The position numbers and the translations under genes were made by a program. A model generated the notes under the pieces. It had not been told where the DNA came from. It saw nothing but the letters and a program-made list of their open reading frames with translations, and did no database searches. 64,000 nucleotides of DNA from an uncultured Verrucomicrobiae bacterium (lineage in GTDB: Bacteria; Chlamydiota; Chlamydiia; Chlamydiales; Rhabdochlamydiaceae), in assembly GCA_963718565.1 (NCBI GenBank), contig OY970364.1, positions 2,144,001 to 2,208,000 of the forward strand, in the 5' to 3' direction. Of the stretch, positions 9,363-10,189 are shown one piece after another. Every line of letters starts with the position of its first letter. Position 1 is the stretch's first letter.

Positions 9363-10189
9363 AGATCATTTTCTGCGATAACCATATTCTCGTTGTCTCC
9401 AAGCCCGCCGGTATCAGTACCCAGCCCCATGAAGCAGATAGAGGGAATTGCAAAACTCCTCGCCAGCAGAAAATCGATGATTTTGGCACCTGTTGCCAGA
9501 ACCCGCACAGCGGGTTCGGTTGGCGGCGGCGAAAGCATACTTGGATAAGTAGGAGAGCCGCCGCCAAGGCGACAGGTGCCAAAAGCGCGATTTTATGCGG
9601 CGAGGAGTCTTGCAATTCCCTCGATAACTTGCTCGATCAAGCTAAGGCCTGGCTTAAGAAACAATTTCAAAAGAATGGCCATGTTTTCCTCGAACCCATC
9701 CACCGGTTAGACAAACCCGTGAGCGGTCTTGTGCTTTTCGCAAGGACAAGCAAAGCATTGTCGCGTCTTCAAGAGATGATGCGCCAGCGCAAGATCGAAA
9801 AAACTTATTTCGCTTGGATCGAAGGAGTATTGCCCCAAGAAGGCACATTGGAACATTATTTGGTTCACGATGAATATCGTGCACGAGTTGTCGATAGATC
9901 TCACCCAAAGGGGAAGCTTGCCCGTTTACGCTATTTTCAGATCGAAAAATCTCTTGTTGAAATTCACTTGGAAACAGGCCGCTATCATCAGATCCGTGCG
10001 CAATTTGCTTATATTGGCTGTCCTATTGTTGGCGATCAAAAGTATGGAAGTACCCTTCAGTGGAAAAAAAAGGAGGGAATTGCTCTGCACCATGGACGGT
10101 TGAAATTTTTGCATCCTGTCACAAAGTCAGACATCTGTTTTGAGTCTTTAGAACCTTCATCTTTCGGAATGGACCGGCCGATTTTTTAA
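9359..10189 (+). CDS. RluA/RluD family pseudouridine synthase carrying an in-frame 62-codon MITE insertion
   Basis: VVSKPAG, HRLDKPVSG (catalytic Asp), TGRYHQIRAQ, PIVGDQKYG, LH motifs. Confidence 0.92.
   Translation: MKIIFCDNHILVVSKPAGISTQPHEADRGNCKTPRQQKIDDFGTCCQNPHSGFGWRRRKHTWISRRAAAKATGAKSAILCGEESCNSLDNLLDQAKAWLKKQFQKNGHVFLEPIHRLDKPVSGLVLFARTSKALSRLQEMMRQRKIEKTYFAWIEGVLPQEGTLEHYLVHDEYRARVVDRSHPKGKLARLRYFQIEKSLVEIHLETGRYHQIRAQFAYIGCPIVGDQKYGSTLQWKKKEGIALHHGRLKFLHPVTKSDICFESLEPSSFGMDRPIF
9441..9622. mobile_element. MITE family R1 (182 bp) inside a CDS, 4-bp TSD GATA
   Basis: GATA-GAGGGAATTGCAAAACTCCTCGCC...GGCGAGGAGTCTTGCAATTCCCTC-GATA; similar to 47174-47306. Confidence 0.92.

Follow-up and report, generated by a model that had tools for sequence, protein, structure and literature searches.

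In-frame colonization of housekeeping genes by palindromic repeats is a textbook oddity of Rickettsia. According to the available portion of a review (PMC10969869), which cites Ogata et al. 2000 and 2002 for this work, Rickettsia palindromic elements (RPEs) are ~150 bp long, fall into ten families and, in R. conorii, have nearly half of their copies fused in frame to genes. The same portion of the review (PMC10969869) lists further intragenic transposable elements of the miniature inverted-repeat type (MITEs) with in-frame fusions, namely ERIC, QMITE1 of Coxiella burnetii and the MITEs of Anabaena PCC 7120. Here we describe a comparable case in a 64,000-nt stretch of DNA (the window) from an uncultured bacterium of the Rhabdochlamydiaceae, comprising bases 2144001-2208000 of a genome (G000) that consists of a single contig of 2,284,058 bp with 43.6% GC. 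Within this window a 182-bp MITE, a member of a family that we call family A, lies in frame in the gene of a predicted RluA-family pseudouridine synthase (the Rlu gene). We favor, at a probability of roughly 70%, the reading that this is a young in-frame MITE insertion in a gene that has stayed open, the product keeping its normal fold and gaining a 62-residue loop, and that the insert is a tolerated passenger rather than a designed peptide module.

Set against what the available portion of the review says of RPEs, family A is alike in that short palindromic repeats of an obligate intracellular bacterium lie in frame in unrelated housekeeping genes, where they add a peptide and leave the protein unbroken, and many copies behave alike. 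This likeness is one of behavior, and it is accompanied by clear differences: the host belongs to the Chlamydiota (Rhabdochlamydiaceae) and not to Rickettsia, family A is a classical MITE with clear terminal inverted repeats (TIRs) and a 4-bp target-site duplication (TSD), and 7 of its 64 copies of at least 100 bp are genic, compared with the nearly half given for R. conorii RPEs (PMC10969869). An initial annotation of the window, made from its sequence alone, had proposed RPE-like behavior, and this is borne out by the seven genic copies, all of which preserve the open reading frame (ORF) and were compared with orthologs in congeners. As presented in the same portion of the review, ERIC, QMITE1 and the Anabaena MITEs share with family A the character of a TIR- and TSD-bearing non-autonomous element that is sometimes located within an ORF and then read along with it, whereas here several conserved enzymes of one genome have been invaded and one codon pair has been struck by two families in two species. 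Since the elements are ordinary TIR/TSD MITEs, the mechanism of their arrival is clear, and the in-frame pattern now extends to obligate intracellular bacteria of a second lineage, unrelated to Rickettsia. The initial annotation knew of no chlamydial description of such a system, and a literature survey, judged by titles and the opening lines of abstracts, likewise found none of MITEs in chlamydiae; the main text of a paper on Rhabdochlamydiaceae genomes discusses insertion sequences and contains neither "MITE" nor "palindromic".

The element and its host gene

The window copy starts with GAGGGAATTGC, finishes with GCAATTCCCTC and has a GC content of 56% (Table 1). It is built of inverted repeats nested in one another, with arms of 27 nt (93%), 17 nt (94%) and 11 nt (100%; TTGGCGGCGGC/GCCGCCGCCAA), and, given its TIRs, fixed-length TSD, small size, multiple copies and lack of room for a transposase gene, it is a MITE. 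Together with one GATA, it amounts to 186 nt, or 62 codons, between the PHEAD and NLLDQAK segments of the Rlu protein; because 186 is a multiple of 3 and the frame in use is free of stops, the gene stays open. An in-frame palindromic MITE with a GATA TSD and 62 added codons is what the initial annotation had described, and rechecking the sequence and the ORF list found its coordinates, its counts and the ORFs crossing the element (9158-9538(-) and 9322-9615(-) at this copy) to be exact.

As RNA, the element would fold into one long hairpin (-128.2 kcal/mol, z = -15.5) with a stem of ~75 bp, and none of 200 dinucleotide shuffles folded as well. A search of Rfam with window positions 9200-9900 gave no match at E values up to 1. 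The inserted peptide is basic (12 K+R vs 5 D+E) and includes 5 Cys. Pfam and NCBIfam scans of the whole Rlu protein returned only pseudouridine-synthase families, and the inserted peptide itself matched no curated family.

Table 1. Positions of the described elements and genes in the window
Feature	Position	Strand or orientation	Remarks
MITE family A, 182-bp subfamily copy	9441..9622		Stop-free "+2" frame yields 62 aa (RGNCKTPR...CNSLD)
Left GATA TSD copy	9437..9440		Abuts element start
Right GATA TSD copy	9623..9626		Abuts element end
Left TIR	9441..9464		Arms 9438-9464 / 9599-9625, 93% complementary
Right TIR	9599..9622		Pairs with left TIR
Central GC-rich hairpin module	9520..9567		11-nt arms at 100%; present in 182-bp subfamily, not in 133-bp form
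RluA-family pseudouridine synthase gene, no S4 domain	9359..10189	+	276 aa with insert, ~214 aa without
SpoU/TrmH-type RNA methyltransferase gene	8421..9362	+	Upstream of Rlu gene; PF00588 E 7e-36; stop overlaps Rlu start (ATGA)
133-bp sister copy of family A	47174..47306	opposite orientation	Lacks a perfect TSD; located 32 bp upstream of where a minus-strand 608-aa ORF starts
Family A copy, 127 bp, TSD CATT	6716..6842		Genome 2150716-2150842

The Rlu protein matches PF00849 (PseudoU_synth_2) over residues 9-217, a span that includes the insert (E 7e-31). The HRLD motif that carries the catalytic Asp, which had been reported as intact downstream of the element, is indeed present in the translation, and in an alignment of 118 sequences H115, R116 and D118 are invariant and L117 is conserved in at least 90%. 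Across the 97 columns of at least 85% conservation, the window protein shows 0 deviations, compared with a median of 3 in the 117 other sequences. Its NCBIfam rluA_subfam score is 143.8 bits, under the cut-off of 192.7, and the equivalog models fall far under theirs (TruC 89.9 vs 328, RluD 78.2 vs 351, RluA 57.9 vs 286). Such MITE inserts account for over-long orthologs and lowered family scores when genomes of this kind are annotated, of which this rluA_subfam score is an example.

An AlphaFold model based on the 118-sequence alignment (mean predicted local distance difference test score, pLDDT, 83.1; predicted template modeling score, pTM, 0.77) had RluA (2I82) as its top Foldseek match (E 8e-16, TM(target) 0.79), followed by RluD and RluC. 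By its domain, its HRLD motif and the RluA-type fold of the model, the window protein is a member of the RluA family. On either side of the insert the pLDDT is at least 95, and residues 42-85 fall below 50; the insert is probably a disordered loop. In the model it comes after the KPxG-motif strand and the loop of that strand, directly before a helix (residues 91-102) that leads into HRLD, and in the protein alignment the residues flanking it are the variable ones of the loop. This arrangement, read from the order of secondary structure only, would place the insert at the boundary between the forefinger loop and helix α1. In the complexes of RluA, RluB and RluF, according to published work, the forefinger loop and α1 both bind the minor groove of the RNA, and the forefinger loop is required for RluA activity.

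Consistent with an insertion as the initial annotation had it, orthologs lack the 62 residues and the window element is carried by 0 of 18 congeners, although the Rlu gene is present in all 19 genomes of the genus. Among the best 120 of 5474 protein matches, the closest has 83% identity and 217 aa, all sequences but the query measure 179-284 aa, and the 62 inserted residues are unique to the window protein in the alignment. The best match begins at query residue 86-92, right behind the insert, in 16 of the 18 congeners, and the N- and C-terminal parts are adjacent or form one piece in 10 of 11 loci. Aligned with the DNA of 5 congeners, the window gene shows a clean 186-nt gap, and excising the element with one GATA restores GAT AAC (Asp-Asn) as in the orthologs. 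The distance from the DNH to the HRLD motif tells the same story, being 42-49 residues in 76 of 80 genome loci (3 were unmeasurable) and 42-51 in 113 of 120 proteins (5 were unmeasurable), two sets that overlap in origin; only two values stand out, 108 in the window protein and 104 in one other. The gene's nearest named relatives carry the labels Ca. Rhabdochlamydia sp., Rhabdochlamydiaceae, Parachlamydiales or Chlamydiota, with a few labelled Verrucomicrobia, in agreement with the chlamydial host that had been deduced from the sequence and marking it as an environmental chlamydia of the Rhabdochlamydiaceae.

Family A across the genome

Copies of family A were counted by searching G000 for the 19-nt end with up to 3 mismatches and pairing forward and reverse occurrences within 600 bp. 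The 149 forward and 141 reverse occurrences, well beyond chance, formed 80 pairs, 64 of them at least 100 bp long. Two size groups dominate these, one of 182 bp, with 23 copies of exactly this length and 3 more of 181 or 183 bp, and one of 257, 258 or 259 bp (8, 7 and 4 copies, respectively), and a form of 133-137 bp is rare (3 copies). The family is modular: adding a 49-bp hairpin to the 133-bp form gives the 182-bp form, and a further ~76 bp in the loop of that hairpin gives the 257-bp form. The initial annotation had treated this 49-bp hairpin as an extra of the window copy that brings its length to a multiple of three; it is indeed missing from the 133-bp sister copy in the window, but it is a trait of the commonest subfamily and neither peculiar to the window copy nor a means of tuning it. 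A perfect 4-bp TSD flanks 44 of the 64 copies, its successive positions favoring T, A, T/A and A. The 22 other copies that measure exactly 182 bp share 95.1-98.9% identity (median 97.3%) with the window copy, a likeness that points to a recent burst.

Like the copy in the Rlu gene, the sister copy is crossed by ORFs (47092-47355(+) and 47115-47315(+)). Two family A end fragments of ~50 bp were also detected in the window by blastn, at 29455-29509 and 48317-48363. Beyond G000, relatives of family A occur in 12 of 18 congeners, at identities of 82% or less, and were found in none of 6 genomes from other genera of the host family; in 16 genomes of other families, the search gave a single weak 25-nt match in one genome. 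The 16-mer terminal repeat GAGGGAATTGCAAAAC is found in 14 of the 18 congeners, while a reversed control pattern gave 0-1 matches.

A screen for ORFs that run through an element and stay open for 25 codons or more on each side retained 16 of the 64 copies; 11 of these were examined with Pfam, and the main ones were translated. Overall, 7 of the 64 copies, including that in the Rlu gene, are genic and ORF-preserving, and none breaks a recognizable gene. In MutY, a 62-aa insert lies in frame, and the parts flanking it are adjacent in one open frame in 5 of 5 congeners. Inserts of 87 aa are carried by a chorismate-binding MenF-like enzyme, whose site is empty in 5 of 5 congeners, by an OppF-like ABC ATPase, where the insert lies between the first strand and the Walker region (403 aa, vs 317-339 aa for the frames of the 5 of 5 congeners checked), and by a SET-domain protein, for which all 3 readable congener N-termini are continuous. 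The remaining two inserts affect signal peptides: that of a MORN-repeat lipoprotein, compared with 2 readable congener N-termini, and that of a secreted glycosyltransferase, where the insert directly follows Met1 and 1 readable congener N-terminus was compared.

Other spanning ORFs were not accepted as genic. The ORF at 2242-2949 has no Pfam match and its translation resembles that of non-coding sequence; the collagen-like ORF at 2058183-2061857 has its start codon past the element; the start of the PBP4-like ORF at 1734964-1736787 is uncertain, the element probably lying in its leader; and the ORFs at 609675-610178 and 923641-924141 match no family. A complementary test, independent of what the element contains, asked whether a long ORF runs across the junction once the element and 4 bp are removed, and at 3 of 12 sites such an ORF is interrupted by the element. 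These three sites (25637, 91352 and 609769) were rejected as broken genes, the element lying upstream of the start codon of the gene in each. Frame-breaking copies within long ORFs would have shown up in this test, and there were none.

The genic share of 11% compares with ~79% expected from random use of the same 4-mers (binomial P 4e-31), a strong depletion; the coding mask behind this expectation, made of ORFs of at least 150 aa, is rough and covers 83% of the genome. The initial annotation had also suggested that intragenic copies might be enriched for lengths that preserve the frame, and this is the case: in all 7 genic copies the element length plus 4 is a multiple of 3, compared with 30 of the 57 others (Fisher one-sided P 0.017). 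All genic copies of the 257-259-bp class are of 257 bp.

A second element at the same codons in a congener

The ortholog of the Rlu protein in the congener G012 (P0078, 284 aa; L038:681-853) has 57 extra residues at the place of the window insert. The DNA of this insert is palindromic, with 24-nt arms at 83%, nested inner arms and ends that read TACACAGAGTGATTC..., and it belongs to a different family, family B. The family B element of 169 bp plus a duplicated TA makes 171 nt, or 57 codons, in frame. Besides this copy, G012 has 4 full-length ones at 92-97%; relatives are present in G001, G002 and G000, and TA flanks both sides of all aligned copies. Excising the element from the G012 ortholog gives GAA GAT AAC CTT, showing that the same GATAAC was used twice, with GATA duplicated by family A and TA by family B. 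The two families are alike in being palindromic and in frame, in using the same TA of GATAAC and in having a length that, with the duplication, is a multiple of 3; they are unlike in that their sequences and ends are unrelated and their duplications measure 2 bp in family B and 4 bp in family A.

The two insertions are independent, because closer orthologs (86-74% identity) have an empty site, a search for family A in G012 gave 0 matches, and a search for family B at the window site found none. The G012 protein deviates at 2 of the 97 conserved columns. That the same Asp-Asn codons were hit twice speaks for a permissive site where the forefinger loop meets helix α1, and the independent and likewise intact G012 case makes tolerance of the insert more likely than chance. 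Two MITE families at one Asp-Asn pair form a natural experiment that marks a permissive site by the RNA-binding forefinger loop of an RluA-type enzyme, and the proteins with and without 57-62 extra residues provide a testable pair for whether such inserts are neutral, harmful or specificity-changing.

A related observation concerns the MORN lipoprotein. Its ortholog in the congener G006 (L131:1332-1498) carries, in frame in the signal-peptide region, a 167-bp palindrome with 76-nt arms that are 87% complementary. With the family A copy at G000 1797198-1797379, this is a second gene in which different elements occupy the same part in different species.

Competing explanations and the source of the elements

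The course of events that we consider most probable is as follows. A non-autonomous family A MITE, presumably mobilized by a transposase in trans, recently transposed into the GATA of the codons for Asp27 and Asn28, an AT-rich target of T-A-W-A-like type. Its phase and orientation by chance brought one of its three stop-free frames into use, and the element would be translated and the enzyme would continue to function. The insert would then persist as the site tolerates extra residues, with gene-breaking insertions removed by selection.

Several observations weigh against this reading. The initial annotation had asked whether the insert is a surface loop: the insert is predicted to be disordered, but its site borders RNA-binding elements and, by the order of secondary structure, would be no innocuous surface loop, lying where the forefinger loop ends and helix α1 begins. 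G000 also codes for an RNase III homolog (PF14622, E 3e-33), and the stable ~75-bp hairpin together with this enzyme may lead to cleavage or poor translation of the mRNA. Given how young the insertion is, an intact ORF and perfect conservation reveal little about how the gene has functioned since. RNA runs were searched for the window stretch and none contained it. Contigs from four soil-metagenome DNA runs of one study, compared with window positions 9000-10400, break at the edges of the element, with no junction bridged and no empty site. Finally, no transposase gene with family A ends was found among TIR pairs 600-4000 bp apart in G000 or among pairs the size of an insertion sequence (IS) in G008 and G009.

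Some of these points are shared by the alternative that the insertion inactivated the Rlu gene, leaving a very young pseudogene whose frame is open since 186 is a multiple of 3 and ~41% of frames are stop-free. Single RluA-family synthases are usually dispensable in E. coli, and G000 has two RluA-family paralogs elsewhere in its genome. The 95.1-98.9% identity among 182-bp copies speaks for a recent event, the mean open-frame share of 0.41 per 182-bp copy means that an open frame is not rare, and the position beside RNA-binding elements and the very stable mRNA hairpin in a genome that encodes RNase III fit a loss of function. Against this, all 19 genomes of the genus have retained the gene, and here it deviates at none of the 97 columns; the G012 ortholog, hit independently at the same site by an in-frame element, is likewise intact, with its 2 deviations; and were genic insertions neutral losses, 0 frame-breaking genic copies of family A would not be expected. 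We regard a pseudogene as unlikely.

The initial annotation had gone further in the other direction and suggested a peptide-donating repeat system. In this account the length and the stop-free frames of the element would have been selected to supply useful segments, in this case a basic loop changing how RNA is bound, and it can draw on the divisibility by 3 of length plus TSD in the 182-bp and 257-bp forms and in family B (169+2), on the 3 of 6 frames that are open, and on a basic peptide beside RNA-binding elements. The 182-bp form and family B, however, were both found through being in frame, so that their lengths are not independent evidence, and the 258- and 259-bp variants (n=11) are as common as the 257-bp form (n=8). 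Nor is the element unusually stop-poor, as had been claimed. Three of six frames are stop-free in the 182-bp consensus and in the window copy (the mean over 23 copies is 41%), and at least 3 open frames are obtained in 6.3% of 5000 plain dinucleotide shuffles (P 0.06) and in 37.6% of palindrome-preserving shuffles (P 0.38), an ordinary count for a palindrome of 56% GC; the stop-poorness is what a GC-rich palindrome yields by itself. The three open frames are each used, in different genes, the insert is predicted to be disordered, and an unrelated sequence fills the same site in G012, all of which speak against a peptide-donating function and make an adapted donor improbable. We conclude that selection filters insertions, with no sign of selection shaping the element.

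It is also conceivable, at very long odds, that the insert is skipped by translational bypass or removed at the RNA level, so that the ancestral enzyme is made. Bypass has precedents in T4 gene 60 and in the "byp" elements of a yeast mitochondrion. At the Rlu gene, in-frame GAT codons at 9437-9439 and 9623-9625 stand at both feet of the hairpin base, and the hairpin of -128 kcal/mol would bring the two together. The 186 nt are, however, far longer than the segments bypassed in those precedents; the frame is open, so no stop or other pausing signal follows the take-off codon; and the 0 frame-breaking genic copies argue for read-through, as a skipped element needs no open frame. Were bypass to occur, these MITEs would be bacterial counterparts of the translationally bypassed mobile inserts of the yeast mitochondrion. 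An assembly artefact, with a repeat copy misplaced into the gene, can practically be dismissed: short-read metagenome contigs do break at the element edges and bridge no junction, but misassembly does not create a precise 4-bp duplication whose excision restores the orthologous codons, and the same architecture recurs at six other genes.

As to the missing parent of the family A elements, candidates were examined within the TIR pairs named above. A pair of 1740 bp encloses an ISAs1-family transposase (NF033564, E 2e-81), which was rejected as the parent since the element has its own, different ends. The 13 copies of this ISAs1-family element, which share the inner part only, have at least 99.8% identity across ~1301 bp; the copy at G000 1624273-1626012 (L028) sits inside a MITE-like element sharing the outer 17 nt of the family A end. 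The remaining pairs in G000 contain ordinary genes or no long ORF, and two IS-sized pairs in G009 and G008 enclose ORFs of ordinary kinds, among them ndk-like and smpB-like ones. The lack of a match may reflect diverged ends or a parent that has been lost.

Family A ends also enclose ordinary genes. At G000 96519-98152 (L029) they flank a 478-aa membrane-transporter-like ORF, and at G000 25135-28253 (L030) a segment that includes a phosphoribosyl pyrophosphate synthetase gene, with AGTA on both sides. These arrangements around whole genes could be chance pairings of separate copies or cases of composite mobilization.

The Rlu gene itself is the last of several RNA-modification genes in a row (window 7712-10189), comprising an S-adenosylmethionine methyltransferase (PF10672), the SpoU/TrmH methyltransferase (PF00588) and the Rlu gene. 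The ATGA overlap between the latter two suggests that they form one operon of RNA-modification genes.

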